Of a stretch of 64,000 nt of DNA, positions 22,753-63,767 are shown piece after piece; positions within the stretch are counted from its first letter, which is position 1, and each line of letters begins with the position of its first letter. The notes beneath the pieces were generated by a model. The model was not told where the DNA came from. It made no database searches and saw only the letters and a list, made by a program, of their open reading frames with translations. Source of the stretch: a virus. A program made the translations under genes and the position numbers. Location: the IMG/VR virus record IMGVR_UViG_3300020220_003261. One strand, given 5' to 3'.

Positions 22753-22760
22753 TATTTATA
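22753..22760 (+). promoter_or_regulatory. TATTTATA putative late promoter
   Basis: Intergenic, after a terminator and before fibre gene 22807. Confidence 0.5.
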
Positions 22761-22806
22761 GTAAACATTTGAACACCATTAGTGGATAATGAAACTAATT
22801 TGATAA

Positions 22807-25606: not shown

Positions 25607-25815
25607 AAACTGAAGAATATTATATTGGAGAAATTAAAGTAATTAAGATTATTAATGATGAGGAAGACCTATCGACAGAAGAAGATAGAAATTATTGGCT
25701 ATCTATATGTGAATCTTGTAAAAAATATAATGAAGGAAGGTGTGGTGAATGTGGTTGTATTGTATTAAGTATGATGTCACTCAAGGAATCTAAATGTCCA
25801 ATAAATAAATGGTAG
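25603..25815 (+). CDS. Small Cys-rich putative metal-binding protein (CxxC...CxxCGC...CP..KW)
   Basis: ICESCKKYNEGRCGECGCIV...KCPINKW. Confidence 0.75.
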   Translation: MKTEEYYIGEIKVIKIINDEEDLSTEEDRNYWLSICESCKKYNEGRCGECGCIVLSMMSLKESKCPINKW

Positions 25816-31111: not shown

Positions 31112-31356
31112 CACAAATTAAAAAAACTAATGGTAAAGATGACGAATTATTGATTCTTGAACAAAGAAAAGTTAAAGCACTGGAAAAAATTTCAAATTCT
31201 TTAGACGCACTTACTGTGTGGGTTGAAGAAATTGATAAAGAGGAGTGGGGTAACAGAATACAATTCTATTTAGCAGAGTTTCATAACAAAATCGTAAAAG
31301 AAATTGTATTCAAAGATGGTCAAGAGGTAAAAATATCCAATAAGAAAATAAAATAA
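31108..31356 (+). CDS. Hypothetical protein
   Basis: 82-aa helical ORF, overlap-coupled. Confidence 0.7.
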   Translation: MTQIKKTNGKDDELLILEQRKVKALEKISNSLDALTVWVEEIDKEEWGNRIQFYLAEFHNKIVKEIVFKDGQEVKISNKKIK

Positions 31357-37015: not shown

Positions 37016-37046
37016 AATAAATTAATTAAATTATAATAAAAAAATT

Positions 37047-38495
37047 ATGTCAAAACAATTAGTAAAATGGAGAGATAAACATTTAAATTCTATAAGTAAT
37101 AGTTTTTGTGCGGCAAAATGGTTCAATGTAAGTTTACATTTAGGACACGGTTTTACAAATTCGTGTCATTTACCACTACCACATCCAATAGATTTGGAAA
37201 AAATTAAAACAAATCCCTCTGCACTTCATAATACTGATTTCAAAAAGGAGATTAGGAAGATGATGTTAGAAGGAACAAGACCGGCCGAATGTTCGTATTG
37301 TTGGAGAATTGAGGACATTGGTAGAAATAATGTTTCTGACAGGGTCTATAAAAGTCAAATATACAAGGAACAAGACATTGCTTCCATAAAAGACATACCA
37401 TGGGACGCTGATGTTATGCCAAAAACAATTGAAGTAAGTTTTGATAGAATTTGTAATTTTGCATGTACTTATTGCAATTCGGGTTATAGTACGAAATGGG
37501 GAAAAGACATTAAAGATAATGGACCGTATCAAAAGTTCAAAACAACGAGTGCGGGTGCATATTATGCAGACGGTTCATGGTCTGAAATATATGGAAAGTA
37601 TGGTGAGAATAATCCTTATGTTAAAGCATTCTTAGAATGGTGGCCTGAATTATCACAAAATTTAGAAGAAATTAGAATTACTGGTGGAGAGCCCTCCCAA
37701 AGCCATAACTTTTGGAAGTTTATGGAAATAGTAAAACAATATGATTCTCCGAATCTAAGAGTAGCTATTAATTCAAATTTAGGACAAACAGAGAGAACTA
37801 TTGATAGACTTATAAATGTAACAAAAGAAATAAAGGTAAAAGAATTTGATTTATACACAAGTTGTGAAGCATATGGAAAACATGCAGAATATATTAGAGA
37901 TGGTTTGAATTATAAAATATGGAGACAAAACTTAGTCAATATAATTGAAAATGCGAATATCAGACAAGTTGTTATTATGATGACAATAAATAATTTGTGT
38001 CTATTCAGTATCACTGATTTTATGAATGATATGTTAGAATTAAAAGCTAAGTATGGTTGGAATAAACCAATTTTAGATTTAAACATTCTGAGATGGCCCG
38101 CATTTATGTCACCACTTACCTTACCCAATGAATTTAAACACATATTACATGACAATTTGAAAACATGGTATGAAATGCAAGAGAATAATGAACTTTTAAA
38201 CATACATGAGAGAGGTCAAATTGAAAGACTAATTGATTACATAGAAGTTGTCAATAGAGGACATATTACAACAGAATTAGATAATGTATCACAATATCAT
38301 GATTTTAAAAGCTTTTATGTCCAATACGATTTAAGAAGAAATAAAAATTTTCAAGATACTTTTCCACAATTATCAGATTGGTTTAATGAAATTATAGTTG
38401 ATAAAAGTATACCTGATGTTAGTGTAACAGACGGAAGAATCACACATTTTGAACCAGGAATATACGTGTCAGATAAAGATAATTACAATAAGTAA
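37047..38495 (+). CDS. Twitch-type radical SAM enzyme
   Basis: CAAKW...NSCHLP, CSYCW, RICNFACTYC, ITGGEPS. Paralogue of the C-terminal part of 34198-36294. Confidence 0.88.
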   Translation: MSKQLVKWRDKHLNSISNSFCAAKWFNVSLHLGHGFTNSCHLPLPHPIDLEKIKTNPSALHNTDFKKEIRKMMLEGTRPAECSYCWRIEDIGRNNVSDRVYKSQIYKEQDIASIKDIPWDADVMPKTIEVSFDRICNFACTYCNSGYSTKWGKDIKDNGPYQKFKTTSAGAYYADGSWSEIYGKYGENNPYVKAFLEWWPELSQNLEEIRITGGEPSQSHNFWKFMEIVKQYDSPNLRVAINSNLGQTERTIDRLINVTKEIKVKEFDLYTSCEAYGKHAEYIRDGLNYKIWRQNLVNIIENANIRQVVIMMTINNLCLFSITDFMNDMLELKAKYGWNKPILDLNILRWPAFMSPLTLPNEFKHILHDNLKTWYEMQENNELLNIHERGQIERLIDYIEVVNRGHITTELDNVSQYHDFKSFYVQYDLRRNKNFQDTFPQLSDWFNEIIVDKSIPDVSVTDGRITHFEPGIYVSDKDNYNK

Positions 38496-41012: not shown

Positions 41013-41769
41013 ATATTTGAATGATTTAGAAGTAAAAAAATTACTATTTGATTGGAAATACAAAGGATATGCAATTATTGATATGTTATCTATAGAAGAA
41101 TGTAATGATATAAATAATGAATTAAATAAATTGAGAATTAATAGAAATAATAATTTAGAAAAAAATTGGGATATATATGAACCATATATGCACCCACATA
41201 AAGAATCAGAATTAATTGAAAAGATTTTTGCTCATCCTAAGGCAATAGAAGTAATGGAATTACTTTTAGGGAATAATTTAGAGGGAGTTCAAACGTGGGC
41301 GTATTTTAAACCACCCGGTGAATTAGGTAGAGACGCTCACCAAGACGGGTTTTACAGTCAATCTATATGGAACACAATAGCTAATGTTAGTGTTGCACTC
41401 GATGACACCGATGAAACAAATGGAGGTATTTGGGCTTATGAATCTTCCCATTTATTACCACTATTGGAAATTGAGGTTGATGAAGAAAGAATTAAAACAA
41501 ACCCATCCAACTGGAGAAATGAGAGAGGTAAACCTTGTAAAATGCCAAATGGGCATAATTTTTCAAAAGTTTATCCATCATTGAAAAAAGGACAATCATT
41601 TTTAATACATTCACATTTAGTTCATGGTTCAGATGATAACAATTCAGAAAATTTTAGAAGATCAATTCTGATGGGTTATAAAACTATTGGGACACCTATT
41701 AGACAAGGTGAACATATGAAAAGAATTCCGGTTGATGTGTATGAGTTAAGAAATAAATTATGGAATTAA
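41005..41769 (+). CDS. Phytanoyl-CoA dioxygenase (PhyH) family 2OG-Fe(II) oxygenase
   Basis: FKPPG...AHQDGFY (HxD), VALDDTDETNGG, LVHGS..N.S..FRR. Confidence 0.88.
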   Translation: MFKYLNDLEVKKLLFDWKYKGYAIIDMLSIEECNDINNELNKLRINRNNNLEKNWDIYEPYMHPHKESELIEKIFAHPKAIEVMELLLGNNLEGVQTWAYFKPPGELGRDAHQDGFYSQSIWNTIANVSVALDDTDETNGGIWAYESSHLLPLLEIEVDEERIKTNPSNWRNERGKPCKMPNGHNFSKVYPSLKKGQSFLIHSHLVHGSDDNNSENFRRSILMGYKTIGTPIRQGEHMKRIPVDVYELRNKLWN

Positions 41770-42314
41770 TTTGAATAATATAATTCGGGATATTCGACTA
41801 TTATATGTATACCACCTTTTTCATAGACATTTTTATATATCGATTCAATATTTTCCCAAGATAATAAATCGTGAAATTGAATGTTTTTACACATTGATTT
41901 ATATTCATTTATATAATTACCCTTATGTTGGTGACCAGGATCTAAAGGTTTGACTGATCCCTTTCCGAGTCTTATAATCATATTAGGTTTCCATTCACCT
42001 TTACTCATCAAAACAATTTTATCAACGTGATTTACCAATTGATTTGTTGCACATATTAAAAAATCCCATCTTGGATAAAAAGTAATAACAAATTTACCAG
42101 CCATCGCCATTCCTAAAGACATACCCATTTGAGATTCCTCCATTACTGGCAACTCAATAAGTTTATTTTTGGGAACGTTTCCAATCGTTGTGCTCATAGG
42201 ATTCCCATGCCAAACTATTTGTTGACCAATAAAAATCGTATCTTCTTTTTGACCTAGTAATGTCATTGAATTTGTTAACGCATCTTTGTATGGTGTATAT
42301 TCTGGTTTACTCAT
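41766..42314 (-). CDS. ThDP enzyme beta subunit (PYR domain only; transketolase/PDH E1-beta-like)
   Basis: IELPVMEESQMGMSLGMAMAG, FLICATNQLVNH, HKGNY. 182 aa, no C-terminal domain. Confidence 0.85.
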   Translation of the reverse strand: MSKPEYTPYKDALTNSMTLLGQKEDTIFIGQQIVWHGNPMSTTIGNVPKNKLIELPVMEESQMGMSLGMAMAGKFVITFYPRWDFLICATNQLVNHVDKIVLMSKGEWKPNMIIRLGKGSVKPLDPGHQHKGNYINEYKSMCKNIQFHDLLSWENIESIYKNVYEKGGIHIIVEYPELYYSN

Positions 42315-43140
42315 TCTCTATTTTTTTTATAATATTATCTGCAATTATTTTATGACACAATAATGATGGATGGGAATCTTGGGGACAATCATCACCAAAA
42401 AAAGCAAGATCTTCTTTTATTAATAAATTTTCATTTGATTTAATCATATAATCTAAACATTTATAATTTTTTCCCATATAATCGAAGGTTATTAACCTTT
42501 TGTTCAAAAAATCATCCTTCGTGATAACACGAGAATAATCATCTGACCAATTCCAAATCCAACATTTTATACCTTTGCTTTCATAAAATTCAAAAAAAGA
42601 TTTTATATCATTCATTATATTTTCTGCCATATGATTCATCAAATCAGGTAAACCATATAATTTTTTCAATTCCATATATTCATATAATAATCTTTGGTTT
42701 TCTTTGTCTTCATTAATAATTTGCAAATTATGTTTATGACCATCCTTTTCAATTTTTATATGATTTCTCATAATTAGTGATGTTTGTAGAACAATATGAC
42801 TTATTTCACTATAGTCAAATTTACCATCATAATTTGTATTTCTATGTGGGTTGTAATGGTCATCATACAACGGACCATCAACACTTATAACCCCTTTCAA
42901 AAAATTTATACTTGTTTCTTCATTTCCTCCGTTAGACTTTTTAACAACTTCGAATGTATTGAAATGTTGTGCCACAAGTCTTGCAAACCTGTTGGCATAC
43001 ATGTATTGATAATGTGCCTCCGTCAAATATTTAAAATCAAATTTTTCAGGTGGAGGTCTTTTAATCGTAGGCATTTTAGAATAATAATATAAACCTTGAC
43101 CCCATGTGAATGAACAACCTAAAAATATTATTCCATTCAT
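42307..43140 (-). CDS. SGNH-like protein (GCS variant)
   Basis: FLGCSFTWGQG, GGNE, C-terminal DSHPSLLCH. Confidence 0.7.
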   Translation of the reverse strand: MNGIIFLGCSFTWGQGLYYYSKMPTIKRPPPEKFDFKYLTEAHYQYMYANRFARLVAQHFNTFEVVKKSNGGNEETSINFLKGVISVDGPLYDDHYNPHRNTNYDGKFDYSEISHIVLQTSLIMRNHIKIEKDGHKHNLQIINEDKENQRLLYEYMELKKLYGLPDLMNHMAENIMNDIKSFFEFYESKGIKCWIWNWSDDYSRVITKDDFLNKRLITFDYMGKNYKCLDYMIKSNENLLIKEDLAFFGDDCPQDSHPSLLCHKIIADNIIKKIENE

Positions 43141-43961
43141 AGTTTACTTTTCATTTTTTTTATTATGTTATTTGCAAAAATTTGATGACATAGTTTTGAT
43201 GGATGATGATCTTTAGGTGGATTAGCACCAAAATTCTCATAATCTTTAGAAATTTCTAATTCAGGATTTTGATATATCATTTCGTATATGTTACTGTATA
43301 TTTTTTCTTTATATTCTAAATCAATGTATCTTTCACTTAAATATGGATCTTTTTTTATAAAAGGTAAATGATTTGTTTCCCATGAAAATAATAAACATTT
43401 TATACCCTTACTTTCATAAAATTCGAATTTTTTTTTAATTCTTTGGACTTGTTGTTCTGTAAATAAAACAACCCATTCATCAAATTCTAAATTATTTTCA
43501 TCTAACCATTCATGAAACTTATCTAAATTTTCACCAATACCACTTTTCCAAACATAAGACCAATAATCAACACCTTTTAATTTGTAATTAAATTTATTTC
43601 TCCAAATTTGAGATGTTTGTAATATTATAAATTCAAAGTCGTCATAATGAAATCTCTGATCACGAGCAATTAAATGTTCTTTTGGGTTTATTTTTTTATC
43701 TATATCAAATACTTGATCAAAAAAATCAAATGTCTCATCCTCACTACCCCCATTTTGATTTTTAAAAACTTCAAATGTTTTGAAATAATCTGCGACTAAT
43801 CTCGGATATCTTATAGTATTTTTGAATCTTATGTGTGATGTTTTTACTAAATGTGGATCGAATTGCCATTCAGGTGGATACTGAAGTCTATTTAAATCAG
43901 AATAAAAATATAAACCTTGACCCCATGTGAATGAACACCCACCAAATAATAATCCTTTCAT
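43137..43961 (-). CDS. SGNH-like protein (GCS variant), tandem paralogue
   Basis: FGGCSFTWGQG, GGSE, C-terminal DHHPSKLCH. Confidence 0.7.
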   Translation of the reverse strand: MKGLLFGGCSFTWGQGLYFYSDLNRLQYPPEWQFDPHLVKTSHIRFKNTIRYPRLVADYFKTFEVFKNQNGGSEDETFDFFDQVFDIDKKINPKEHLIARDQRFHYDDFEFIILQTSQIWRNKFNYKLKGVDYWSYVWKSGIGENLDKFHEWLDENNLEFDEWVVLFTEQQVQRIKKKFEFYESKGIKCLLFSWETNHLPFIKKDPYLSERYIDLEYKEKIYSNIYEMIYQNPELEISKDYENFGANPPKDHHPSKLCHQIFANNIIKKMKSKL

Positions 43962-44600
43962 TTATTTAATTCGTAAAACTATTGTGTAAAATTTTGATTC
44001 TCCAGTCCAACCATAACTGTCATATTCTATATAACATACGTCATAATCAGATTTAGCGATTTCAATTATATCTTGAACAGATACACCATCTGCATTTTCT
44101 ACTAATATAATTGATGAATAACCTTCAACGTAATTTTGTGCATCTTTTAAAAACTTAGTATGAAATTTCATTTCTTCATCTAATGATATTAATTCTTCGT
44201 GTTCGTTTCTATATCCACCTGGTCTTCTTGTTTTGAAATGTGGAGGATTACTAATAATCGTATCAAATTTATAACTAAATTCAGGAAATGAATCAAAAAC
44301 ATTTGATTCTATAAATTTTGTATTTTTAATATTATTAGTTGATATTGTTTTATCAATATATTCTTTATTCTCAGCATTAATATCACTCAATATTAAGTTT
44401 TCACATTGATAGTTGAAATTGAGATAAAATCCCATGAAGCCAGGGCCACTACACATTTCTAAAACATTTTTTGGCCTTAAATGTTTTTTTACACCCTCAC
44501 TTTTTAGGGCATTAATACCAAAAACGGTTCCACCTCCATCCAATGTTTTGTGATAGTAAACTACCTTTTCATTTATTTTGAATTCTTCCATTTTAAGCAA
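43962..44600 (-). CDS. SAM-dependent amino-methyltransferase (PrmC/small MTase-like)
   Basis: VLEMCSGPG motif I and IISNPPHF motif IV. Confidence 0.8.
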   Translation of the reverse strand: MLKMEEFKINEKVVYYHKTLDGGGTVFGINALKSEGVKKHLRPKNVLEMCSGPGFMGFYLNFNYQCENLILSDINAENKEYIDKTISTNNIKNTKFIESNVFDSFPEFSYKFDTIISNPPHFKTRRPGGYRNEHEELISLDEEMKFHTKFLKDAQNYVEGYSSIILVENADGVSVQDIIEIAKSDYDVCYIEYDSYGWTGESKFYTIVLRIK

Positions 44601-45567
44601 ATTCAGTTTTGTTATCCATATACCATTGATATGTTATTTTTAAACCTTCATCTAAAGAAAATTTTGGTTCCCATCCTAAATTGCTCTTTATTTTATTTGA
44701 ATTAATTCTTCTTGTTGGAATCATAGATGGTTTGCCTTTAATAAATTCTGTTGGAGCGTCATAATCAACAATTTTTTTCATCTTATCGAGAACTTCTAAC
44801 ACAGAATAAACTTGATTTGATCCTACATTATAAACATTATATAATTCTTGTTCTTTTTCCATTATAATTTTTAAAGATTCTACAAAATCATCAACATATA
44901 ATAAATCCCTTAATTCACTTCCATCACCCCATACAGGTATTGGATTCATTTTGTCCGCGACTTTTCTTATTGTTGCAGGTGTAACATGACATTTATTGAA
45001 ATCATACTTGTCATGTGGACCAAAAAGATTTGCTGGTCTTACTACAGTGCATTTCATTTTTCTTGGTAAATGATTACCATACAATTCACATTGAAGTTCC
45101 GCATATCTTTTCATCCAACCAACAGCAAAATATACAGGATATGGTGGATTGAACATAAAGTCCGTTTCAACTACTGGTTCGTCTCCTTTAGGTGGGTAAA
45201 CTGTATTCGAAGAAATGAAAATATAATGTTTTACGTCGTTTCTCCAAGAAGCATCGATTAGAAAATTATTCATTGCAACATTTGGTGTGACATGTAAAAG
45301 AGGGTCTACAATAGTATCGACAGCATTTGATGTTTGAGCCGCACAATGAAACACAACATCGACATTTTTAGTGATATCCATACATTTATCGTGCGTCATT
45401 AAATCACCAACCCAATATTCAATTTGATCATATTTTATTCTTGGTTCTTTTCTATGAACTAAAACTCTTATATTATTGTATCCATTAGAAATTAAATGAT
45501 TAGTTAAATTTTGTCCAACTAATCCTGATCCACCTGTTATAAGTATTTTTGCGTTTTTATCTATCAT
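44593..45567 (-). CDS. NAD-dependent epimerase/dehydratase, GDP-fucose-synthase (WcaG)-like
   Basis: TGGSGLVG, RPANLFGPHD, VWGDGSELRDLLYVDD. Catalytic Tyr position holds Val (VGWMK). Confidence 0.88.
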   Translation of the reverse strand: MIDKNAKILITGGSGLVGQNLTNHLISNGYNNIRVLVHRKEPRIKYDQIEYWVGDLMTHDKCMDITKNVDVVFHCAAQTSNAVDTIVDPLLHVTPNVAMNNFLIDASWRNDVKHYIFISSNTVYPPKGDEPVVETDFMFNPPYPVYFAVGWMKRYAELQCELYGNHLPRKMKCTVVRPANLFGPHDKYDFNKCHVTPATIRKVADKMNPIPVWGDGSELRDLLYVDDFVESLKIIMEKEQELYNVYNVGSNQVYSVLEVLDKMKKIVDYDAPTEFIKGKPSMIPTRRINSNKIKSNLGWEPKFSLDEGLKITYQWYMDNKTEFA

Positions 45568-46340
45568 ATAGAATTTTTAAATATTTTTTTTGCGGCTCTA
45601 CTATGAAATTTCCACATTTCTTCTTCTGTTATTTTTCCCTTATTTAGTTCTTCTTTATAAAATAACTCTTCGTTATATACAAAACTTAAATAAGTAAACC
45701 TGTGAAAATCATTCTTTACGGGTTCTACTTCGTGTATAATATCGTGATTTAAAAAATCCATTATTACAAAATTATCAATTACAGGTTCTACTTTTTCTAG
45801 TTCATTTTCAGTCCTACCCACAACTAAATGTCCACCACCATCAATATAATCTTTTTTATCTGAAAGGTAAATTAAAATAACACAATATCTTTCAGGTGAC
45901 CTACCATCAAAATGCCTTTCGATAAAATCACCATTATCGTAGATGGTAAATGCGTCATGATGTTTTATATTATTTTGTAAATCAGGATATATTTTTGGTA
46001 AGAAACTATTCAAAGTATCCCTCATAAAAGATGTATGTTTTTCAAAATCACCACCTCCACCCTTTTCCCACCATTTTTGTATTATTCTATAATTATTTTT
46101 TTTTATATGATTTTGTCTTTCTTCAATTTCATCAAGACTTGTTACCCAATGTCTTTTATTTTCTTGATCAAGTTGTGGATATTGAAAACGGTATTTATAC
46201 CCTTTTCTAAATCTCGCATTGTAATCCTTGCCGTGTTCACGAACCTCTTCAGCAATTTTTTCAAAGGTTTCCATTTCTTTTATAATTTCATTGGTTTTAC
46301 CTATGTAATAACCACTTTCTAAATAGTCTTGTATATTCAT
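45564..46340 (-). CDS. 2OG-Fe(II) oxygenase
   Basis: TIYDNGDFIERHFDG, GGHL, IIHEVEPV...RFT. Confidence 0.8.
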   Translation of the reverse strand: MNIQDYLESGYYIGKTNEIIKEMETFEKIAEEVREHGKDYNARFRKGYKYRFQYPQLDQENKRHWVTSLDEIEERQNHIKKNNYRIIQKWWEKGGGGDFEKHTSFMRDTLNSFLPKIYPDLQNNIKHHDAFTIYDNGDFIERHFDGRSPERYCVILIYLSDKKDYIDGGGHLVVGRTENELEKVEPVIDNFVIMDFLNHDIIHEVEPVKNDFHRFTYLSFVYNEELFYKEELNKGKITEEEMWKFHSRAAKKIFKNSI

Positions 46341-46341
46341 T

Positions 46342-47274
46342 CTAAATCGTTTTAATATAAAAATTATACGTTTTTTCTAAAGCTTGTTTAAATCCTAATT
46401 TTGGTAAAAGATTATATTTCTCCTGTTTAGTTGTGTCCATTTGTCTTCTTAAATCACCATTTGGTTTTGATGTATCCCAACTGACATCTAAACTTTTACC
46501 ACTAATATTAATTATCTGGTCAACCATATATTTTATTGATATTTCTTCTCCAGAACCAAAGTTTATAATTTCATTTATTTCATCCTCAAAAAGTTGAATA
46601 ATTGCATCTGCTACGTCTCCAGCATATACAAAATCTCTAATTGGTGAACCATCACCCCAGCAATCAATTTTATCAATAGATTCATAAACTTTTTTTATTG
46701 TGGATGAAATAACAGTTCCATTACCACTAAAATCATCATACTCACCAAAAATGTTAGCGGGTCTAACAATTGACCATCTATTATAATTGTATTGAACTTC
46801 ATATGCCCCTATTAGTATTTCACCCATTCTTTTACTCCATGAGGGAAACCAATCCGCTTCAGACGGAAGAGTCTTCCAAACTGTATCTTCCATAAACTTT
46901 TCAGCTGGTGCATAAACACCAACAGAACTAACGAATACTAACCATATATTATTGATTGCACATTGATTGATAATTTCTGTGTTTATCTTGAAAGAAGGTA
47001 ACAAAAAATCAACTGGTTTAGTTTTTGCCCTGATAGGAGAACCCTTTATGCCAAATGTGTTCAAAACAACATCTGGCTTTTCATAGAAAAATAAATTCTT
47101 GATGTTTTGATCATCAGTCAAATCTAATTTATAAAATATGAAATTATCTGACATCGGTAAATTTTGAGATTCCCTAATGTCTATACCAATAACAAAATAA
47201 CCCTTTTCTAAACATTTATTTACTAAATGAATACCAACTAATCCACTACAACCCGTTATTAAAATCTTTTTCAT
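46342..47274 (-). CDS. NAD-dependent epimerase/dehydratase, WcaG-like
   Basis: TGCSGLVG, RPANIFGEYD, WGDGSPIRDFVYAGD. Catalytic Tyr position holds Pro (PSWSK). Confidence 0.88.
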   Translation of the reverse strand: MKKILITGCSGLVGIHLVNKCLEKGYFVIGIDIRESQNLPMSDNFIFYKLDLTDDQNIKNLFFYEKPDVVLNTFGIKGSPIRAKTKPVDFLLPSFKINTEIINQCAINNIWLVFVSSVGVYAPAEKFMEDTVWKTLPSEADWFPSWSKRMGEILIGAYEVQYNYNRWSIVRPANIFGEYDDFSGNGTVISSTIKKVYESIDKIDCWGDGSPIRDFVYAGDVADAIIQLFEDEINEIINFGSGEEISIKYMVDQIINISGKSLDVSWDTSKPNGDLRRQMDTTKQEKYNLLPKLGFKQALEKTYNFYIKTI

Positions 47275-48554
47275 AAATTTTTATTTATCAAACTTTTAAA
47301 AAAATTAAAATCATAATTATCGTCTGCTAATGACATCACTTTAATTTTATTTTCCCATAATCTCCTTTCATTTTTTTTATAAAATTCGATGATACTATTT
47401 TTATTTTTTATTAGTCTTGTGACCTCATTAAAAAATTTGAAAAACCTTTCTCTTGGATCAAAAATCGTATCATAATCATGGTTAATAATATCTTCAAATA
47501 AATCGAAATTGTAAATGTATTTTAACTTACTCACATGATTGTGTGATGCCAAAAATATTGGTAATTGAAAAAAATACATCGGTTTTATTGATTTCTCACT
47601 AATATGGACATCATCGACAAAATATGCAGATTCAGTAACACAGTTGATAAAGTTGTTTTCGTAACTTTTTAATTCAAATATCTTCCCCCAATTAATTCTA
47701 CCATGATTATCAAAATCATCAAACCAATTTTTATCCTCTTCAAACATACTTTTTTTTATATCTAAATTATTAAAATAGTCTATTTCGGGTTTAATTCTTT
47801 CAATTTCATTATTGGTAAAAATATTTCTATAAAATTGATAATCAATACCATTTAAATTTCTTTTTTTATGTTCCCAACCCATAACCAAAGACCAATCAAA
47901 TTCGTGCAATATGTTGTATTTTTTTAAAAGAACTAATAACGAATACCTATGAGGTTTTGGTGTTCTATTGTGACACATAAATAAACAACCTTCTTTTTCT
48001 GTCACATATTTACTTTCAAAATGTGATATATTAAGTGCGGTAATTTTAGGAAGAAATCTTATACTATGAACATTTATATCTGTATTGTGTTTCTTTTTAT
48101 AGTCATTTAAATTTGAATTATTATTTATAAAATAAACTTTTTTATGTGGTATACTAACTTTATCTAAATGATAAATTAATTTAGTTAATGCTTTTTCGGG
48201 TTCATACTCGTGTTCAGAAACAAGGCCTAAATAAAAATTATCGTTAGATTTTAAATAATTAATTACCTCATCTGAGATTGGGAGACGATTAATATCCTTC
48301 AACATACTATGTATATCTTGTATATTATTTATAAAATAATAAAAATTTTCATTTGGTTTATCTGTTATTTCACTTAGTTTATAAGATTTACAATTTCTAA
48401 ATTTATAAAAATTTAATAATCCCTCTACTTTTCTTACTTTGAAATCTCCCTTTACTATGTTTTTACCATTTTCGATTGGCATTTCATTATCCCATATGTC
48501 ATATACTAAATTTAAGTAATCCATATTTAAATTTCTAAATTTAAGATATTCCAA
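47271..48554 (-). CDS. Orphan GT-like family protein, paralogue 2
   Basis: CHNRTPKPHR ... NCVTES...ISEKSIKP...LFEDIINHDYD. Confidence 0.75.
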   Translation of the reverse strand: MEYLKFRNLNMDYLNLVYDIWDNEMPIENGKNIVKGDFKVRKVEGLLNFYKFRNCKSYKLSEITDKPNENFYYFINNIQDIHSMLKDINRLPISDEVINYLKSNDNFYLGLVSEHEYEPEKALTKLIYHLDKVSIPHKKVYFINNNSNLNDYKKKHNTDINVHSIRFLPKITALNISHFESKYVTEKEGCLFMCHNRTPKPHRYSLLVLLKKYNILHEFDWSLVMGWEHKKRNLNGIDYQFYRNIFTNNEIERIKPEIDYFNNLDIKKSMFEEDKNWFDDFDNHGRINWGKIFELKSYENNFINCVTESAYFVDDVHISEKSIKPMYFFQLPIFLASHNHVSKLKYIYNFDLFEDIINHDYDTIFDPRERFFKFFNEVTRLIKNKNSIIEFYKKNERRLWENKIKVMSLADDNYDFNFFKSLINKNL

Positions 48555-49836
48555 TTATATTTTTATTTATATAATTAATGTCAGTTTTATCATTCATAAT
48601 ATCTTTCGTAATTTGTTGATTTTTAAAAAGTCTTTCACGATTTTCTACATAAAATTTTTTTACCTGATCTTTATTTTGATGTAATCTTTTTATTTCTTTA
48701 AAAATCATGTTGAATCTTTTGTAATCATCAAATTCCTGATCATAACTATGGTCTATTAGGTCATCAAAAAAATCATAACCATATCTTTCTTTCATACACT
48801 CAACATGTCTCGGTGTTGCAACAAATAAAGGTAATTGTAGGAAATAAAATGGTTTAAAAGATTTTTCTGTAATTGATACATAGTTCTTTTTCGAAAATGC
48901 GGTTTCAGCTGTTATGTTAATATAAGAATTAACATATGTCTCTAACACATAATGATCACCCCAATTATTATTTAATGGGCGTTTATTTGTTCCTAAATCA
49001 AACCAATTTAAGTGTTTTTCGAATTTACTTTTTTTGACATCTATACTCATTAAGTAGTTAATCTCATTTTGATATTCATTTACCTCTTCCACATTCATCA
49101 CATCATTAAAAAACATGTGATTAAAATCTTTCATTTTTTGTCCAGTGTTTCTAAATTGATATCCACAACCTGCAGACCAATCAACATCATCAATTATATT
49201 ATTTTTCATCATTTTCATTATTAGACCATATCTATGAGATTTTGGGACTCTAATATGAAATAAAAAGAGAAAATCTTTTTGTCTTAAAAATTGAATATCG
49301 TATCTTAAGAACCAATAAACATGTGAATGTGCAAGTGCTCTACAGGAATAGACGTTAATCTTAGTATTACATTTTTTATTATATTCCTCTAAAAAATAAT
49401 TATTATTTATTACAAAAATTTGTTCCTCATTTATGTTTTGAAATTTACAAGCTTCCTTCAAGTAGTCTAATATTTCAACAATATCGGCTTCAGAGGGATG
49501 ACAAATTAGAATTTTAAAATTGGCATTTTTTCTAATTGTTTCTAAAAATTCCGAATTAAACGGAAGTCTTTTTCTTTCCATCAAATAAGTACTAATTTTA
49601 TAAAACCAATCAGAAATTACAAAATAAAAATTTTCATCTGGAAACTTTTCAATTTCTTTTAAATCACACTTATTAAAATTTTTCATCTTATAAGTTGTAA
49701 ATAAAGGTTTAGAATGATTAAATAGTTCTTCAGATGTTATTGTAAAATCTTTTTTTATACGTTCTGAAAAATAAGTGTATTGAAAATGAAAATCTACACA
49801 TACTAAATTTATTCTTCTTGTTTCTATACCAAACAT
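48541..49836 (-). CDS. Orphan GT-like family protein, paralogue 3
   Basis: FHIRVPKSHR ... NITAET...ITEKSFKP...FFDDLIDHSYD. Confidence 0.75.
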   Translation of the reverse strand: MFGIETRRINLVCVDFHFQYTYFSERIKKDFTITSEELFNHSKPLFTTYKMKNFNKCDLKEIEKFPDENFYFVISDWFYKISTYLMERKRLPFNSEFLETIRKNANFKILICHPSEADIVEILDYLKEACKFQNINEEQIFVINNNYFLEEYNKKCNTKINVYSCRALAHSHVYWFLRYDIQFLRQKDFLFLFHIRVPKSHRYGLIMKMMKNNIIDDVDWSAGCGYQFRNTGQKMKDFNHMFFNDVMNVEEVNEYQNEINYLMSIDVKKSKFEKHLNWFDLGTNKRPLNNNWGDHYVLETYVNSYINITAETAFSKKNYVSITEKSFKPFYFLQLPLFVATPRHVECMKERYGYDFFDDLIDHSYDQEFDDYKRFNMIFKEIKRLHQNKDQVKKFYVENRERLFKNQQITKDIMNDKTDINYINKNIIGIS

Positions 49837-51080
49837 TTTAAAAATTTTTCGTCATATTGATTATTACTGAATTGTATAATTTTTAATTTATTTTGATAAA
49901 ATCTTTCATAATTATTTTTATAGAATTCAATCACATCTGTTTTTCTATTATAAAGAGAAACTATTTCATTTACTATTTTTTGAAATCTTATTTTATTATC
50001 GGGTTCATTATCATAATCATGATTTACAACATCTTCAAAAAAATCAAATCCGTATCTATTTTTCATTGCTTTTATGTGACCACAAGTTGCAAAAATTATT
50101 GGTATTTGAAAAGAATGAAAGGGTATGTATGATTTTTCAGTTACATGTATTATACCTGGTCTTTCGAATGAAGATTCAGTTGTAATATTCACATAAGATG
50201 TTTCATATGTTTTTGAATCATAATAGTTACCCCACTGACCTTTTGCTGGTGAACCGTTTTCATTCAAATAGTGCCACGTCATATAATCTTCATACTTACT
50301 TTTTTTTATGTCATCTTTTGTAACAAAATCAATATCATTTTCAATTTCTTTTAATTCTGTTTTTTCTATTAAATGTTCAAAAAAAGTATTTTTAATATCA
50401 CCAACATTATCTTTACACATTTTTTTATATTGAAATGATTGTAAATTCGACCAATTGGTGTCTTCTAATAAATTGTTTTTACTCAAGTATGCCAATGTTA
50501 ATAATCTATGTGCTTTCATAGTTTTGTTGTGACATAAAAAGAAAAATTCTTTTTCTTTAACAAAATCTATTTTATAATTTTCCATATCTCTGTTCATTAA
50601 AGACATGTGATGATTTGCTATATGATGTATTGGTTTAAAATTATGTTTATTTACATAATAATCAAAATTATGATCATCATCTATGATAATAAATTGATTG
50701 GGATCTATATCAAAATGATCACAAGTATTTTTAATTAATATAAAAAATTGTTCACCGAAACATTCATGGGCTTCACAAAAAAATATTTTGAAATTTTTGT
50801 AATTTTTAAGATAGTGAACTATTTTATTTGAAAACGGTATGAAATTTGGTCTTAATTTTGTAACAACAGCATAAAAAAATGTGTTACACGCCGGCGGACT
50901 ATAGTAAAAATATTCACTCGGATTATTTTCGATATCCCCAAATTCTTTTTTTACTGGATCCGCAATATTATAAAAGCCGAAAAGTGCACCAGTATTATAT
51001 ATTGCATCTCTTTCATTTATAACAGAAGAATCTTCATTATATAAATCGTAATCTAATATTACATTTAAAATATTACCCAT
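49824..51080 (-). CDS. Orphan GT-like family protein, paralogue 4
   Basis: CHNKTMKAHR ... NITTES...VTEKSYIP...FFEDVVNHDYD. Confidence 0.75.
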   Translation of the reverse strand: MGNILNVILDYDLYNEDSSVINERDAIYNTGALFGFYNIADPVKKEFGDIENNPSEYFYYSPPACNTFFYAVVTKLRPNFIPFSNKIVHYLKNYKNFKIFFCEAHECFGEQFFILIKNTCDHFDIDPNQFIIIDDDHNFDYYVNKHNFKPIHHIANHHMSLMNRDMENYKIDFVKEKEFFFLCHNKTMKAHRLLTLAYLSKNNLLEDTNWSNLQSFQYKKMCKDNVGDIKNTFFEHLIEKTELKEIENDIDFVTKDDIKKSKYEDYMTWHYLNENGSPAKGQWGNYYDSKTYETSYVNITTESSFERPGIIHVTEKSYIPFHSFQIPIIFATCGHIKAMKNRYGFDFFEDVVNHDYDNEPDNKIRFQKIVNEIVSLYNRKTDVIEFYKNNYERFYQNKLKIIQFSNNQYDEKFLKCLV

Positions 51081-51694
51081 TTACCTGTTCCGTAATGCGG
51101 CCATTGTTTTTTATAATCATACCAAATAACATCATCAGGTATTTCACTTTTTATTTTCCAAGTTTCAACTGTCGGTGTATTTGTTGATACTCCGTTATCT
51201 TCTACAACAAATCTTATAGGTAAGTCAAAGTTTTTTGAATATTTGTAATTTTCCATAAAACCACCAGTTTCAAATGCCATGTCACCAACAAAGCACCACA
51301 CTAATTCATCATTACCTTTCAATTTATTTGCCATTGCCACACCTACCGCGATTGGTATGATAGCACCAACAATTGCCGATGCATAAAATTTATATTCTTT
51401 ACTAACAATCGTTATTGATCTACCTTCTAAAATTTCATTTTCTAACCATTCTGAAGGAACACCCTTTATTAATGCATGATAATGTGAACGCCATGTGCTG
51501 AAAACCCAATCAGTTGGTTTAATTCTTTTTCCAATTTCAAGTATTTCATATTCATTTCCACCACTTAAATGAATCGGACCCCTAACTCTACCGGCCTCCC
51601 AATGATCTGCCATTTTTCTTTCAAATCCGATTAATCCGTGTGTATCCCATAGAACTTCATTAACTATTGGATATTTTTCTAAATTTTTTATCAT
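51065..51694 (-). CDS. ThDP enzyme alpha subunit (PDH E1-alpha-like, truncated)
   Basis: GPIHLSGGNE, STWRSHYHAL, ThDP motif GDMAFETG...VVEDN. Only 209 aa. Confidence 0.88.
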   Translation of the reverse strand: MIKNLEKYPIVNEVLWDTHGLIGFERKMADHWEAGRVRGPIHLSGGNEYEILEIGKRIKPTDWVFSTWRSHYHALIKGVPSEWLENEILEGRSITIVSKEYKFYASAIVGAIIPIAVGVAMANKLKGNDELVWCFVGDMAFETGGFMENYKYSKNFDLPIRFVVEDNGVSTNTPTVETWKIKSEIPDDVIWYDYKKQWPHYGTGKWVIF

Positions 51695-52254
51695 CTGTCT
51701 CTTTTTTGTAATATTGGTTTATCTGTTGGCCATTCCATTTGATATTCAGGATCATTCCATTTTACAACATATTGTTTATCAACATCAACATAGCTTTCTT
51801 TATAAAATAAATTATAATGAAACATACAGTCTGTTAATGCATAGTGTCCATTTGCAAAACCTGGAGGAACCAGTACTTGATTTCTTAATCTTTCAGTGAT
51901 AATAAAACTTTCCCATTCTCCAAATGTGTTAGAATTTTCTCTCATGTCCAAAACAACTAAATAGATGTCACCAACCGCCGCTTGAACCATCTTCCAAGTT
52001 TTATTATCCCAATGTAATCCTCTTAAAACCCCTTTATAAGATTTAGAAAATCTTCCGTGAATACTAATTTCATTTTTATCGTAATGAATATGTCTCATTA
52101 CAGGATGATCTTCTGAATGAAAAGTTGTCCAAATTTCTCCTCTATATTCTCTATACACAGAAGGTTGAAATTGTGGAACTTGATACCCAAACTTTTTTGA
52201 TGGTATCTCAATAAATTCATTCCAATTATTATCCATATTATGTTTGATTTGCAT
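51691..52254 (-). CDS. rfbC: dTDP-4-dehydrorhamnose 3,5-epimerase
   Basis: YREYRG, SKSYKGVLRGLH, VLVPPGFANGH, WNDP. Confidence 0.9.
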   Translation of the reverse strand: MQIKHNMDNNWNEFIEIPSKKFGYQVPQFQPSVYREYRGEIWTTFHSEDHPVMRHIHYDKNEISIHGRFSKSYKGVLRGLHWDNKTWKMVQAAVGDIYLVVLDMRENSNTFGEWESFIITERLRNQVLVPPGFANGHYALTDCMFHYNLFYKESYVDVDKQYVVKWNDPEYQMEWPTDKPILQKRDR

Positions 52255-53203
52255 AACCTAAAGGAAATCCGTTTCTAAATTCGGCACCCATTTTGGGAAC
52301 AATCATTTGATATGCTTGTATGAGTTGTTTAATTCCCATATCTAAATCCCAAGTAGGTGACCAACCTGTTGATTCTATTTTTTGATTTGAAACAATATAA
52401 TTTCTTTTATCTGGATCTTCATAATAATCATCATAAACCACAGCAAAGTCTTTTACATGTGTTTGTATTTTTTCAAGTAGTTCTTGTTTTGATAGATTAG
52501 CATCACTCAACCCAACATTAAAAACTTCATTTTTATAAGTTTCATAATTTTCAAGCATGAATAAAAAAGCATCTGCAACGTCCTCTATATGAATAAAGTT
52601 TCTTTTAAAACTCTTTTCAAAAACAACTATATATTTGTCTGTAATAGCCTTGTAAACAAAATCATTTACTAATAAGTCATTTCTCATTCTTGGTGATACA
52701 CCAAAAACAGTTGCCAATCTAAAAATAATAGCATCAGTTGAAGACCTAAGAAAATTTTCAGCTTCAACTTTTGTTGTTCCATAAACTGATATGGGATTCA
52801 AAGGAGACTCCTCGGTGCAAAATATATCGTTTTCACGAACACCGTATCCACTATTTGTGTTTGGATATAATATTTTTTTATTCTTAGAAAACTTAACAAC
52901 GTTGACTATTTGTTTGAAATTTATTTCTTTTGATAATTGTGGATCTGCCGCACAAGCTGGAAATCCAACTATTGCTGCCAATGGTATTATTACATCAGAT
53001 TCACCACATAACTGCTCTAAAAGTTTTTCATTTCTAACATCACCATAAATAAATTTAAATTTTGTATTCGAAGTGTATCCTAAAAGAGAAACTTGATTGA
53101 AAAGAAGTTTATCTAAAACAGTTACACTATATCCTGAATTTAATAATTTTTTTGTTATAACTGACCCCAAGTAACCGGCGCCGCCTGTAATTAAAACTCT
53201 CAT
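52238..53203 (-). CDS. NAD-dependent epimerase/dehydratase (canonical YxxxK)
   Basis: TGGAGYLGS, LAAIVGFPAC, YGTTK, RLATVFGVSPRMR. Confidence 0.9.
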   Translation of the reverse strand: MRVLITGGAGYLGSVITKKLLNSGYSVTVLDKLLFNQVSLLGYTSNTKFKFIYGDVRNEKLLEQLCGESDVIIPLAAIVGFPACAADPQLSKEINFKQIVNVVKFSKNKKILYPNTNSGYGVRENDIFCTEESPLNPISVYGTTKVEAENFLRSSTDAIIFRLATVFGVSPRMRNDLLVNDFVYKAITDKYIVVFEKSFKRNFIHIEDVADAFLFMLENYETYKNEVFNVGLSDANLSKQELLEKIQTHVKDFAVVYDDYYEDPDKRNYIVSNQKIESTGWSPTWDLDMGIKQLIQAYQMIVPKMGAEFRNGFPLGYANQT

Positions 53204-60561: not shown

Positions 60562-60996
60562 ATGATATATTGGTTTACAGGACAGCCCGGATCGGGTAAA
60601 ACAACATTAGCTCTGGAATTAATGAAACATCTTCCGGCCGCAACCACTGTTCATATTGACGGTGATCACTTAAGGGATATTTTTAAAAATAAGGACTATT
60701 CTGAAGCAGGACGGAGAAAGAATATAGAAAGAGCGCAAGATATTGCTAAGTTCTTAAATACCAAAGGTTATTCGGTTATAGTGTCTTTAGTTTCCCCATA
60801 TAAGGACCAAAGAGATAAATTCAAATCAGAAAATTCTGTAGTAGAGATATATGTTCATACCAACGAAACAAGAGGTAGAGAACACTTTTCTGTAGATGAC
60901 TACAACCCACCAACTGAAAGATATCTTGATATGGATACAACAAATCAAACAATAGAAGAATCCACTAATAAATTACTTAATACTATATTTTTATGA
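60562..60996 (+). CDS. cysC: Adenylylsulfate (APS) kinase
   Basis: WFTGQPGSGKTT, DGDHLR, YSEAGRRKNI, VSLVSPY. Confidence 0.88.
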   Translation: MIYWFTGQPGSGKTTLALELMKHLPAATTVHIDGDHLRDIFKNKDYSEAGRRKNIERAQDIAKFLNTKGYSVIVSLVSPYKDQRDKFKSENSVVEIYVHTNETRGREHFSVDDYNPPTERYLDMDTTNQTIEESTNKLLNTIFL

Positions 60997-61367
60997 AAAG
61001 GTACGCAATGTACATTGGCAGGTGGCAAAATTGGCACGCCGGTCACGAATGGCTTATTCGCCAGCAATTAGATAAAGGTAAAAATGTATGGGTAGCTATC
61101 AGAGATGTACAAGTTGATGAAAATAATCCAAAATCAGCAAAAGAGGTATTTTGGTCATTAAAAAATGAACCATTTTTTGCTAATAATACGGACAAAATAA
61201 TGGTATCTGTCATTCCAGATATAGAATCCGTGAATTATGGTAGAGGTGTTGGATATGATGTTATTTATCATGAGCCGCCAAATGAAATCGCCGAAATAAG
61301 CGGAACTAAAATTAGAAAAGGAGAAATTGATGTCAATGGTAAAACGACACATAGCAAAGAGTATTAG
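60993..61367 (+). CDS. HxGH nucleotidyltransferase (cytidylyltransferase-like; candidate minimal ATP sulfurylase)
   Basis: GRWQNWHAGH and ISGTKIR (SxTxIR) motifs. Confidence 0.78.
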   Translation: MKRYAMYIGRWQNWHAGHEWLIRQQLDKGKNVWVAIRDVQVDENNPKSAKEVFWSLKNEPFFANNTDKIMVSVIPDIESVNYGRGVGYDVIYHEPPNEIAEISGTKIRKGEIDVNGKTTHSKEY

Positions 61368-61545
61368 CTATAGATTTGTAGGTACAATAACCACAATCAT
61401 ATTATCTGTATCTGCTGGCCTACCACTAAAGTGGGCGGGTATGGTTGGTTTGGGTGAGTTTATTTTGAAGCCTATCATATATTTTTTACATGAGAGAGTT
61501 TGGTACAAATGGATAAAATATGGGTTAAAAAATAAAACAATTTAG
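61327..61545 (+). CDS. Small membrane protein, DUF2061-like
   Basis: KRHIAKSISYRFVGT...YFLHERVW. Confidence 0.78.
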   Translation: MMSMVKRHIAKSISYRFVGTITTIILSVSAGLPLKWAGMVGLGEFILKPIIYFLHERVWYKWIKYGLKNKTI

Positions 61546-61644: not shown

Positions 61645-62151
61645 ATGATAAAAGTAATTGATAATATTTTAACTAAATCTGAGTTTTCTTTTCTAAAAAA
61701 AATTATTAACAACCCCAATTTCTATGCGGACAATAAACCACATACTAAGGTTGATTCAAAAAATTATTACAATCGTAAATTCATAACACCTACGGATAAT
61801 ATAGAAAAAAGGATATATGAGTGTTTAAAATTAGAATATGACTCGCTTAAATTCAAAATTTCTAATTGTTGGATAAACCATATATATGTGGATACAAACA
61901 AAAATGATAATTTTCATAAAGACAGTTCAGATGTTTCTACGGTACTTTTTTTAAATGAGGGATTTATTGGTGGTAATTTTGAATATAAAGATTTTAATGG
62001 TGATATTAATATTATAACACCGAAAGAAAATCGTTTAATCGTAATCGATAAAGAATGTTTACATAGAGTTAGCAACGTAATTGAAGGTAATAGATACACT
62101 TTTGTAGCGTTTTTACATTTTCAAGAAAAAACAAGTAAAACAATAATATGA
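61645..62151 (+). CDS. 2OG-Fe(II) oxygenase (prolyl-4-hydroxylase-like)
   Basis: FHKDS, TVLFLNEGFIGGNF, LHRVSNVIEGNRYT. Confidence 0.85.
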   Translation: MIKVIDNILTKSEFSFLKKIINNPNFYADNKPHTKVDSKNYYNRKFITPTDNIEKRIYECLKLEYDSLKFKISNCWINHIYVDTNKNDNFHKDSSDVSTVLFLNEGFIGGNFEYKDFNGDINIITPKENRLIVIDKECLHRVSNVIEGNRYTFVAFLHFQEKTSKTII

Positions 62152-62184: not shown

Positions 62185-63633
62185 ATGAAATCAGTATTAA
62201 TAGCAACAGATTTAATAAAAACAACTTCAGGAGAAATTAAGGTACTCGAAACCAATACTAATGTAAAAATAGGTCAACCTTTTGGTACTAACACACATTA
62301 CATGGATGGTATCATACCATTTATACAGAATGGTGGTTTTCAAACAGTTCATTGTATTTTGCCAAGAAGTTCACATTATTTTAGTGATGAATTAAATAGG
62401 GTTTGTAATTCTTTAAACATACCACTAACCATACACTTTACTACACCTGACGCCATTACAGTTCCTTTTATTGAGGATTCAGATGATGTGTTAATCATAA
62501 GATTAACATACGATACAACAGCAATAATCGATGATGATTATTGTAGAGATAAATTCGCATTACAGAAAATAATTAATACTAAATCTTATGGTTCAAAAAC
62601 ATATATACCAAATGTTTTAGATGATTTTGATGGTATTGAAGATTTTATATTCAATGAGAACGCTCCAAATTTTATAATTAAAAAACGTTTTCCAAACTAC
62701 AATAAAGAAGTGTGGCCAAAATTGTATAAAATTGAAAATTTAAACCAATTAAACACATTAAAATCAGAAATCGAATCTGATTGTTATTTACAGGAATTCC
62801 ATAATTCCGAATTGATTGATGGAAAAAGATGTATTATCAGAACTCTCGATTTATTATATGGTTCAAATTTAGATGTTTTGAATATTTGTAGTTTTTATAG
62901 AACATCAGAATTGGCCGAGGGCTATTGGCCGAATACGTTTGATGAAAATGGATTACTAGCCTTTAAAGACAGATTTAAATATTTATCTCACGCCTCACAT
63001 GAGGATTCATATATATCAGAATATGTTTACGATGTTGACCAAGAAGTTGTAATGGGTGATGGTAGTAAAAAAATGTTCGCACTTTTAGAAGTTGGAGACC
63101 AAGTAAAAGGAATTCACATTGAGGGATTGGATTTAGATGAATCATCATACGATTTAAAAACTTGGACTGGTAATTATTCTGATTTTATTCAAAATTACAA
63201 TTTAGTAACAACCGAAGTAAAATATACACACACTTCACCCCCAACAAACAAATTATTTTTAAGAGTTACTCTTAACGATGGTAATACACAATGGGATGAT
63301 TTGGGTATTTCTCGAATATTAATAAAGGATAACGATTTGATTAGATTTACATTATTTGAAAATTTAGAAGTGGGTGATGAAATTGTCACATATAATTTTG
63401 AAACTAATTCTGTAGAAATCAAATCAATTCAAACAATAGAAGTTGTTTATAAAGAAAATCAAATTTTAGGCGTTCTTGATGCAGAACCAACTGATTTATA
63501 TCTACCATTAGTTTCTGATAAAATAACAATTATACAACATAACCTGTGTAAAGCTCTATGTAGAAGTACTCAATGTGCTAATGCGACACAATGCGGTGAC
63601 TGCACTACATTTCAATGTTTAAACCAAAAATAA
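62185..63633 (+). CDS. Circularly permuted ATP-grasp-like domain + Hint-like domain + six-Cys tail
   Basis: N-terminal TD...KVLETNTN, FIIKKRFP and YLQEF. VVMGDGSKK...LEVGDQV, LEVGDEI, LDAEPTDLY...IIQHN. Then LCKALCRSTQCANATQCGDCTTFQCLNQK. Confidence 0.72.
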   Translation: MKSVLIATDLIKTTSGEIKVLETNTNVKIGQPFGTNTHYMDGIIPFIQNGGFQTVHCILPRSSHYFSDELNRVCNSLNIPLTIHFTTPDAITVPFIEDSDDVLIIRLTYDTTAIIDDDYCRDKFALQKIINTKSYGSKTYIPNVLDDFDGIEDFIFNENAPNFIIKKRFPNYNKEVWPKLYKIENLNQLNTLKSEIESDCYLQEFHNSELIDGKRCIIRTLDLLYGSNLDVLNICSFYRTSELAEGYWPNTFDENGLLAFKDRFKYLSHASHEDSYISEYVYDVDQEVVMGDGSKKMFALLEVGDQVKGIHIEGLDLDESSYDLKTWTGNYSDFIQNYNLVTTEVKYTHTSPPTNKLFLRVTLNDGNTQWDDLGISRILIKDNDLIRFTLFENLEVGDEIVTYNFETNSVEIKSIQTIEVVYKENQILGVLDAEPTDLYLPLVSDKITIIQHNLCKALCRSTQCANATQCGDCTTFQCLNQK

Positions 63634-63656: not shown

Positions 63657-63767
63657 ATGTTAATAAAAATTATATTTCAGCCAACAGAAGAGTCTACGAA
63701 ACTAAATTTGGATACCGTGATAAAGGATGTTGCCTCCACTATTAAGACAGACATTCAAAACGGTTAA
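63657..63767 (+). CDS. Small hypothetical protein (36 aa)
   Basis: Translated by hand: MLIKIIFQPTEESTKLNLDTVIKDVASTIKTDIQNG*. Confidence 0.4.
   Translation: MLIKIIFQPTEESTKLNLDTVIKDVASTIKTDIQNG

Follow-up and report, generated by a model that had tools for sequence, protein, structure and literature searches.

Ligases of the circularly permuted type represented by glutathione synthetase (GS), GspS and YgiC phosphorylate the terminal carboxylate of a peptide and then join this carboxylate to an amine. In Hint domains, C-terminal cleavage by Asn cyclization can proceed without the N-terminal steps, which is established intein chemistry, and systems for ribosomally synthesized and post-translationally modified peptides (RiPPs) include both enzyme-fused precursors (borosins) and Cys-rich cores (the ranthipeptide SCIFF and cyclotides). 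YgiC and YjfC are given as peptide-spermidine ligases by Pederick et al. (2023), as cited in PMC12568646. In the BUBL loci of Tetrahymena (BIL, ubiquitin-like, BIL), two Hint domains free the N-terminus of a small domain and activate its C-terminus (PMC8616854). The gene considered here lies at positions 62,185-63,633 (+ strand) of a 64,000-nt stretch of viral DNA, IMG/VR record IMGVR_UViG_3300020220_003261, which we refer to as the window, and encodes a 482-aa protein (P0001) composed of a permuted ATP-grasp ligase domain, a Hint domain and a 29-aa peptide with six cysteines. We read this fusion as the self-processing hub protein of a phage peptide-making module, a reading in which our confidence is about evenly balanced. 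It is built on two folds, residue conservation, the cassette boundaries of relatives, Cys parity, gene linkage and a shared C-terminal tag; cleavage, what the ligase acts on, what the tag does and the biological target are inferred.

The open reading frame (ORF) starts with an ATG that has AGGA 9 nt on its 5' side, and the ORF, its motifs and the six-Cys tail all lie where the initial annotation had placed them. Comparative evidence indicates that it is not a chance ORF, because homologues exist (119 by word-indexed search, 227 by exhaustive search) and because the ratio of nonsynonymous to synonymous divergence (dN/dS) is 0.16 for the ligase domain and 0.12 for the Hint domain. An AlphaFold2 (AF2) model built on 103 relatives had a predicted local distance difference test score (pLDDT) of 90.5 and a predicted template modelling (TM) score of 0.86. 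The family set comprises 293 distinct full-length relatives, all from metagenomes or from IMG/VR phage contigs of at most 316 kb; selection figures were obtained from 14 independent close pairs, and identity figures compare 51 closer homologues with the protein of the window. The same sequence is present on JGI lake-metagenome contigs of up to 94 kb, among which L001 gives 10 kb past the window end. Searched by sequence, the whole protein had no match in Pfam (none at E-values up to 1), PHROGs or the PDB. No relatives were found among 50,697 deposited phage genomes with two divergent queries, nor among 185,579 GTDB species genomes, and no cultured phage with the ligase-Hint-peptide architecture was found.

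The ligase domain (residues 1-280; 62,185-63,024) folded alone with a pLDDT of 94.3. In the model, the Mg-ligand hairpin (D9, E22 and N24) comes first and is followed by R106, D116, K166 and R219, with K166 lying within the IIKKRFP stretch and Q203/E204 within YLQEF; D9, E22, N24, R106, D116, K166 and R219 are all conserved in 283 of the 293 relatives. All ten chains with Z of at least 8 in VIA were ATP-grasp ligases of the permuted clade. GspS (2io7) scored a Z of 10.3 (root-mean-square deviation (rmsd) 4.2 over 205 aa), YgiC (7uka) 10.2 and eukaryotic GS 9.5-9.8, and the fungal ligase Cp1B also matched; the alignments of GspS, YgiC, eukaryotic GS and Cp1B all begin at residue 1 of the domain. 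RimK, LysX, Ddl, E. coli GS and the graspetide ligase align from about residue 52, onto their residues 1-245. Because these canonical ATP-grasps align only from residue 52, the domain is modelled as circularly permuted. Foldseek also matched it to ATP-grasp ligases (E 1e-7), and its ESM-Atlas neighbours include clusters with the Pfam CP_ATPgrasp and GS families (TM 0.61). Since these neighbours carry Pfam 'circularly permuted ATP-grasp' families, the permutation is real but that of a known clade (eukaryotic GS, GspS and CP_ATPgrasp) and not a new event. The permuted ATP-grasp of the initial annotation therefore stands as a fold, with the hairpin first and GspS and YgiC aligned from residue 1, but not as a novelty. 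In an hhalign comparison with E. coli YgiC, D9/E22/N24 fell opposite D102/E115/N117 at a probability of 0.8%, which is not significant alone, and the structural register agrees. A graspetide system, with a canonical RimK-like ligase and conserved Asp/Glu and Thr/Ser/Lys in the core, was considered and rejected: the graspetide ligase 7mgv reached only Z 5.4, aligned from residue 52, and the tails have no conserved acidic core residues, several of them (for example that of P0020) being without any Asp or Glu.

The Hint domain spans residues 281-453 (63,025-63,543). A Hint-like domain had been called from about 63,022, and structure prediction bore out both the fold and a start at about residue 280: VIA gave Z 16.8 and an rmsd of 2.0 over 143 aa to Hedgehog 6tyy, Foldseek gave E 5e-9 to a Hedgehog autoprocessing domain, and in VIA many inteins place their first residue on V281 and their final Asn on N453. 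By sequence, the family profile matched the KlbA intein 2jmz with E 2e-6. The absence of an N-terminal Cys/Ser nucleophile and the Leu after the terminal His-Asn (HN) had likewise been seen correctly. Position 1, where inteins carry Cys1, is V281; family members have H, V, I or L there, or Ser in about 15 of the 293. The block B TxxH motif is missing, with W-D-D-L (W-x-D-L) at that position, and the block F Asp residues D432 and D437 are retained. As Cys1 and TxxH are both lacking, neither splicing nor an N-terminal thioester is possible, and only a C-terminal cut remains. A splicing intein is ruled out by the missing Cys1, block B and +1 nucleophile.

At its C-terminal boundary the domain reads Q451-H452-N453, followed by L454 at +1. 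The H452-N453 pair (63,538-63,543) is the proposed site of Asn cyclization, with the predicted cut after N453. HN is conserved in at least 270 of the 293 relatives, and the remainder are mostly alignment failures caused by insertions. Clear loss of the His was found in three relatives, all of which end in Cys-free stubs of 3-7 aa, and this coincidence of His loss with cargo loss supports the hub reading. At +1 the residue differs between family members (A 64, L 30, S 28, P 23, Y 23), and Cys occupies +2 in 155 of 270 relatives.

The tail that follows (residues 454-482; 63,544-63,630) has a variable +1 residue, Cys at +2 and Lys as its last residue. Its cysteines (Cys455, 459, 464, 470, 473 and 478) are fixed across homologues, and identity at the non-Cys positions is 19%, compared with 49% for the ligase domain and 48% for the Hint domain. 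The dN of the tail is 0.121 over all positions (0.151 at non-Cys positions), against 0.039 for the ligase and 0.032 for the Hint domain, so that the tail evolves about four times faster. Its dN/dS is 0.29 over all positions and 0.37 at non-Cys positions, indicating that purifying selection persists; positive selection is rejected, as these values are not above 1, and a junk tail is ruled out by the fixed Cys positions, even Cys parity and purifying selection. At least four cysteines occur within 45 residues after HN in 241 of the 270 relatives with HN, and Cys cargo is present in about 90% of relatives. Many cargo peptides end in K-[LIV], and Lys is among the last three residues in 165 of the 211 tails that end at a stop codon. 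The homologues thus retain HN ahead of a hypervariable tail with fixed Cys positions, as the initial annotation had anticipated. Moreover, the tail shows what marks a RiPP precursor, namely a hypervariable core, conserved scaffold residues and adjacent tailoring enzymes. In several very close pairs (for example L036/L037, L017/L018 and L041/L046), the proportion of synonymous differences is 0.39-0.79 in the tail and 0.02-0.19 elsewhere in the gene; an excess of synonymous divergence in the tail is seen in 10 of the 14 independent pairs, which is not significant. This excess hints at cassette exchange by recombination, not point mutation alone.

The boundaries of the peptide in relatives provide further evidence. 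Depending on the relative, this peptide unit is terminated by a stop codon, by a self-cleaving Peptidase_S74 domain (K|SD) or by a second complete Hint domain, and is therefore marked as an excised cassette. The S74 domain directly follows the Cys peptide in 28 relatives (Pfam E 5e-5, above the cut-off) and keeps its S-x4-K dyad, with Lys preceding the Ser in 24 of the 28; in L026 and L080, two short members of this type, the peptide is a 26-aa six-Cys unit of the same class as in stop-terminated sisters. The second Hint, found after the payload in 21 relatives, has Cys1, TxxH and a terminal HN, and in some relatives it matches PF14890, PF07591 or PF01079. An even number of cysteines is found in 210 of the 211 tails that end at a stop (six in 140, eight in 50 and ten in 16), in all 28 S74-type peptides and, when the Cys1 of the second Hint is excluded, in all 21 Hint2-type peptides, and this full pattern appears only when the boundaries are set at autoprocessing sites. 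Because parity holds at these boundaries, autoprocessing sites delimit one unit whose cysteines are paired. A second self-cleaving module that brackets the peptide in relatives thus adds comparative support for its predicted release. Other inserts or payloads occur in P0114-P0118, P0259 and P0232: in one group CBM_4_9 is inserted inside the Hint region, and others carry BACON repeats or continue past HN for as many as 1200 residues.

The fusion lies centrally in a conserved island of genes for modifying enzymes, and the genes around it were compared within 4 kb at 67 distinct loci. Starting 23 nt past the fusion stop, a 36-aa ORF without Cys (63,657-63,767, +) represents a conserved companion: a homologous Cys-free ORF of 25-49 aa lies immediately downstream, within about 25 nt of the stop, at 82 of 88 loci. 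Its dN/dS is 0.27; it has no Pfam or PHROG match, and an Atlas lead to DUF6172 was not confirmed by Pfam. Next comes a protein with a CxxC...CxxCxC...C layout (63,774 to the window end at 64,000, +; 97 aa in the full contig), which ends in K-T-L-I, belongs to phrog_13558 and weakly matches DUF6171. This 95-aa family with six fixed cysteines is adjacent to the fusion, always on the same strand, at 60 of the 67 loci, upstream in some clades and downstream in others, and its dN/dS is 0.13. A complex prediction for the fusion and this partner scored 0.08, which is no evidence either way, and in Roseobacter phage CRP-143 a weak match to the partner cuts across annotated genes and is uninformative. 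A distant paralogue of the partner (partner hidden Markov model E 0.006), a 70-aa ORF at 25,603-25,815 (+) right after the tail-fibre genes of the window, has the same layout (C-x2-C ... C-x-E-C-G-C ... C-P-x-x-K-W) without a C-terminal tag.

Upstream of the fusion lies a 168-aa 2-oxoglutarate (2OG)-Fe(II) oxygenase (61,645-62,151, +; PF13640) ending in K-T-I-I. Both features that the initial annotation had placed beside the fusion, this oxygenase and a Cys-rich ORF downstream that the window end truncates, are real. The SPASM radical S-adenosylmethionine (SAM) genes that it had mentioned lie 24 kb away, and a different radical SAM protein neighbours the fusion at 23 of the 67 loci. The 2OG oxygenase family is found at 63 of the 67 loci, a second oxygenase family at 47, a weakly sulfotransferase-like family at 57, and a 180-aa family with a P-loop-like N-terminus (motif P-R-T-G-S-T) and no Pfam or PHROG match at 43. 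A 72-aa DUF2061 membrane protein (61,327-61,545, +), ending in the loose tag N-K-T-I, forms the upstream edge of the island. An adenosine 5'-phosphosulfate (APS) kinase gene lies upstream of the fusion (60,562-60,996, +) and two candidate sulfotransferase genes lie downstream (L001:12512-13234 and 14906-15403), both weak calls, one family having weak Pfam matches and the other a P-loop-like motif alone. These genes may represent supply and use of 3'-phosphoadenosine 5'-phosphosulfate (PAPS), making sulfation of a peptide or glycan possible.

Many of these neighbours share a C-terminal sequence. Seven of the 84 genes in the genome of the window have K-x-[LI]-[ILMF] as their last residues, and all seven lie within 61,645-68,077, while the pattern has an internal frequency of 0.004; when loose forms are included, 11 of the 14 genes from 61,327 to 70,035 carry it, the fusion gene not being counted. 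At the 67 loci, the pattern [KN]-x-[LI]-[ILMFV] closes 346 of 846 neighbour ORFs (41%), whereas its frequency as an internal 4-mer is 0.009. The carriers belong to unrelated families, including oxygenases, the CxxC protein, sulfotransferase-like proteins, a radical SAM protein and an FAD-type enzyme; APS kinase and DUF2061 are mostly without the tag across loci. To our knowledge, there is no precedent for a common C-terminal tag on unrelated enzymes. We read the K-x-[LI]-[IL] tag as a putative docking or substrate signal for the hub.

Cargo-less relatives, which carry the stubs described above, separate these associations. They keep the small ORF and the tagged neighbours, and the CxxC protein is absent from three of the four cargo-less loci with usable flanks, compared with 5 of 65 cargo-bearing loci (Fisher p 0.004, the loci not being independent); therefore, the small ORF goes with the ligase-Hint core and the CxxC protein with the Cys cargo. 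Because the ligase-Hint core also stays intact in these relatives, maturation of its own tail cannot be the sole role of the ligase, and its persistence without cargo argues for a wider one. The enzyme-Hint-precursor fusion first proposed is thus partly supported: both folds and the HN/tail pattern hold.

Under the hub reading, the N-terminal domain would be catalytically active as an amide ligase, an ATP-grasp of the permuted GS/GspS/YgiC type, and the Hint domain, lacking the N-terminal half of intein chemistry, would cut the chain once, after residue 453, by cyclization of N453. Release by this cut would give the 29-aa six-Cys peptide a new alpha-amine, and the peptide would pair its cysteines into three crosslinks, most simply disulfides. 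The 36-aa companion and the CxxC protein that tracks the Cys cargo would be members of the module, and the tailoring enzymes nearby (2OG oxygenases, sulfotransferase-like proteins, radical SAM protein and methyltransferase) share the C-terminal tag, which would serve the hub for docking or as a substrate. Either the C-terminal Lys of the cargo or the tags may be the ligase substrate, in keeping with the action of the nearest relatives on terminal carboxylates of peptides.

Several points weigh against this reading. Cleavage, ligase activity and peptide modification are predictions, and disulfides are not expected in the cytoplasm of the host. The block F His of the Hint domain is replaced by Asp (D437), and at +1 there is no nucleophile but often a bulky residue (L, Y or P), which may slow Asn cyclization. 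The tail has no confident structure in the AF2 model (pLDDT below 50). Cargo-less and tandem-Hint relatives retain an intact ligase, so the tail need not be the ligase substrate. In addition, shared synteny among related phages inflates the linkage counts, and a radical SAM neighbour is present at only about a third of the loci.

The alternative that fares best, though we consider it unlikely, is that the protein is a conjugation enzyme: the ATP-grasp domain would activate the C-terminal carboxylate of the K-x-L-I-tagged neighbours or of the small ORF product and ligate it to an amine (the alpha-amine exposed by the Hint domain, a Lys or a polyamine), with the Cys peptide as an optional cargo or tag and with Hint-peptide-Hint relatives working through a thioester. 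The nearest structural relatives of the domain (GS, GspS and YgiC/YjfC) all act on peptide terminal carboxylates. The position of the tag at the extreme C-terminus of unrelated enzymes and the persistence of ligase, small ORF and tags without cargo also favour conjugation, and the BUBL system provides a precedent in the ATP-independent conjugation catalyzed by a BIL domain (PMC8616854). However, conjugates are not known, it is hard to see why a dozen different enzymes would be tagged, something else could just as well read the tag for docking, sorting or degradation, and the Cys cargo is kept in the great majority of relatives.

Quite improbable, in our view, is that the tail is never released and that a larger enzyme or structural protein has it as a small knob, either metal-binding or held by disulfides, with the Hint domain as a degenerate, non-catalytic spacer. 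The lack of Cys1 and TxxH suits such a spacer, even Cys numbers also suit Zn or Fe-S sites, and the S74 domains of relatives are typical of tail-fibre C-termini. Yet a near-invariant His-Asn stands exactly between a conserved domain and a hypervariable one, a second autoprocessing module brackets the peptide in 49 relatives with Cys parity intact, the four-fold faster evolution with free indels is unexpected for a structural knob, and loss of the His is accompanied by loss of the tail.

A polymorphic-toxin-like effector is very unlikely. In that case a pretoxin-Hint would set free a variable C-terminal payload, either a toxin or a mini-protein that manipulates the host, at lysis or on injection, and the ligase would be cargo-loading machinery unrelated to it. 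A constant N-terminal part and a Hint domain do precede a highly variable payload (including long non-Cys domains of up to 1667 aa, BACON and CBM), and some relatives have Hint parts matching PF07591. However, secretion and delivery domains are lacking, as is any immunity-like pattern of genes, the payloads are Cys peptides of 25-35 aa without a known toxin fold, and Pfam PT-HINT does not match the protein of the window.

The reading of the fusion as a self-processing hub can be carried further, to a specific product that we put forward as a long shot. The alpha-amine freed by the Hint cut would be joined by the GS-like ligase to the carboxylate of the peptide's own C-terminal Lys, giving a head-to-tail cyclic viral peptide of cyclotide size with three disulfides, and the scheme would amount to a new logic of ribosomal peptide synthesis. 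The substrate would be held on the ligase by a cleavage-only Hint domain, the tailoring enzymes would be recruited by C-terminal tags of their own instead of a leader on the substrate, and Hint-peptide-Hint relatives would use a thioester for the last step.

The wider window is a contig of 28% GC from an uncultured lake phage, with a sigma factor, a DNA methyltransferase, virion proteins, collagen-like tail fibres, radical SAM genes and a sugar/sulfate block. Three collagen-like tail-fibre genes (739, 1134 and 722 aa; 16,975-24,975, +) have 36-43% GC, and PHROG matches place a T4-type distal long-tail-fibre domain at the end of the third. Positions 31,356-38,495 (+) hold a run of large genes (473, 474, 698, 247 and 482 aa), none tagged, with radical SAM matches at 34,198-36,294 (a PHROG family) and 37,047-38,495 (a weak Pfam match below the gathering score plus CxxxCxxC). 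Twelve tightly packed untagged genes at 41,766-53,203 (-), ending in genes of the epimerase/dehydratase and dTDP-sugar isomerase types, are probably a glycan or nucleotide-sugar block.

The new elements of this analysis are the argument from cassette boundaries and Cys parity, the selection figures and the split association of the small ORF with the core and of the CxxC protein with the cargo. Full-text literature searches found no paper that combines the ligase, Hint domain, Cys peptide and tagged-enzyme layout, and this layout may represent a novel viral route to a small modified peptide. If the hub reading is true, a family of small cysteine-knot-like peptides that diversifies fast is widespread among large phages of fresh and marine waters (about 290 variants), and viruses would join the known makers of such peptides with a device that unites ligase, protease and precursor in one protein. 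It would also be a natural case of Hint-driven peptide release beside an ATP-dependent ligase, relevant to peptide engineering, and would account for many orphan 2OG oxygenase and sulfotransferase-like genes in these phages. The tag that these unrelated enzymes have in common can be tested as a signal for recruitment or modification.

Compared with known systems, the ligase domain shares with GspS, YgiC/YjfC, eukaryotic GS and CP_ATPgrasp_1/2 the permuted topology with the Mg-binding hairpin first and a D-x12-E-x-N motif in the YgiC register, but it has 10-15% identity to them, is about 100-200 residues shorter, lacks an amidase or substrate-binding extension and is fused to a Hint domain. BIL and PT-HINT (PF07591) domains likewise use a Hint fold to process their host protein without homing or splicing and have a terminal His-Asn before a variable payload; however, they keep the N-terminal Cys and block B, whereas the phage Hint domain has neither, is fused to an enzyme and is not matched by the Pfam models. 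Hint-peptide-Hint relatives have the same layout as the BUBL loci, with a Cys-rich peptide in place of the ubiquitin fold, whereas the protein of the window ends at a stop codon and carries an ATP-grasp domain. Peptidase_S74, the intramolecular chaperone of phage tail spikes, follows the cargo with its Ser-Lys dyad in relatives, where it stands after a short Cys peptide and not a trimeric fibre; the protein of the window itself has no S74 domain. As in RiPP systems, a hypervariable core on a fixed Cys scaffold is tethered to or encoded beside enzymes, with clustered tailoring genes. In contrast to RiPPs, however, the fusion has no leader peptide or RiPP recognition element, release would be autocatalytic through the Hint domain, and it is the enzymes, not the substrate, that are tagged.

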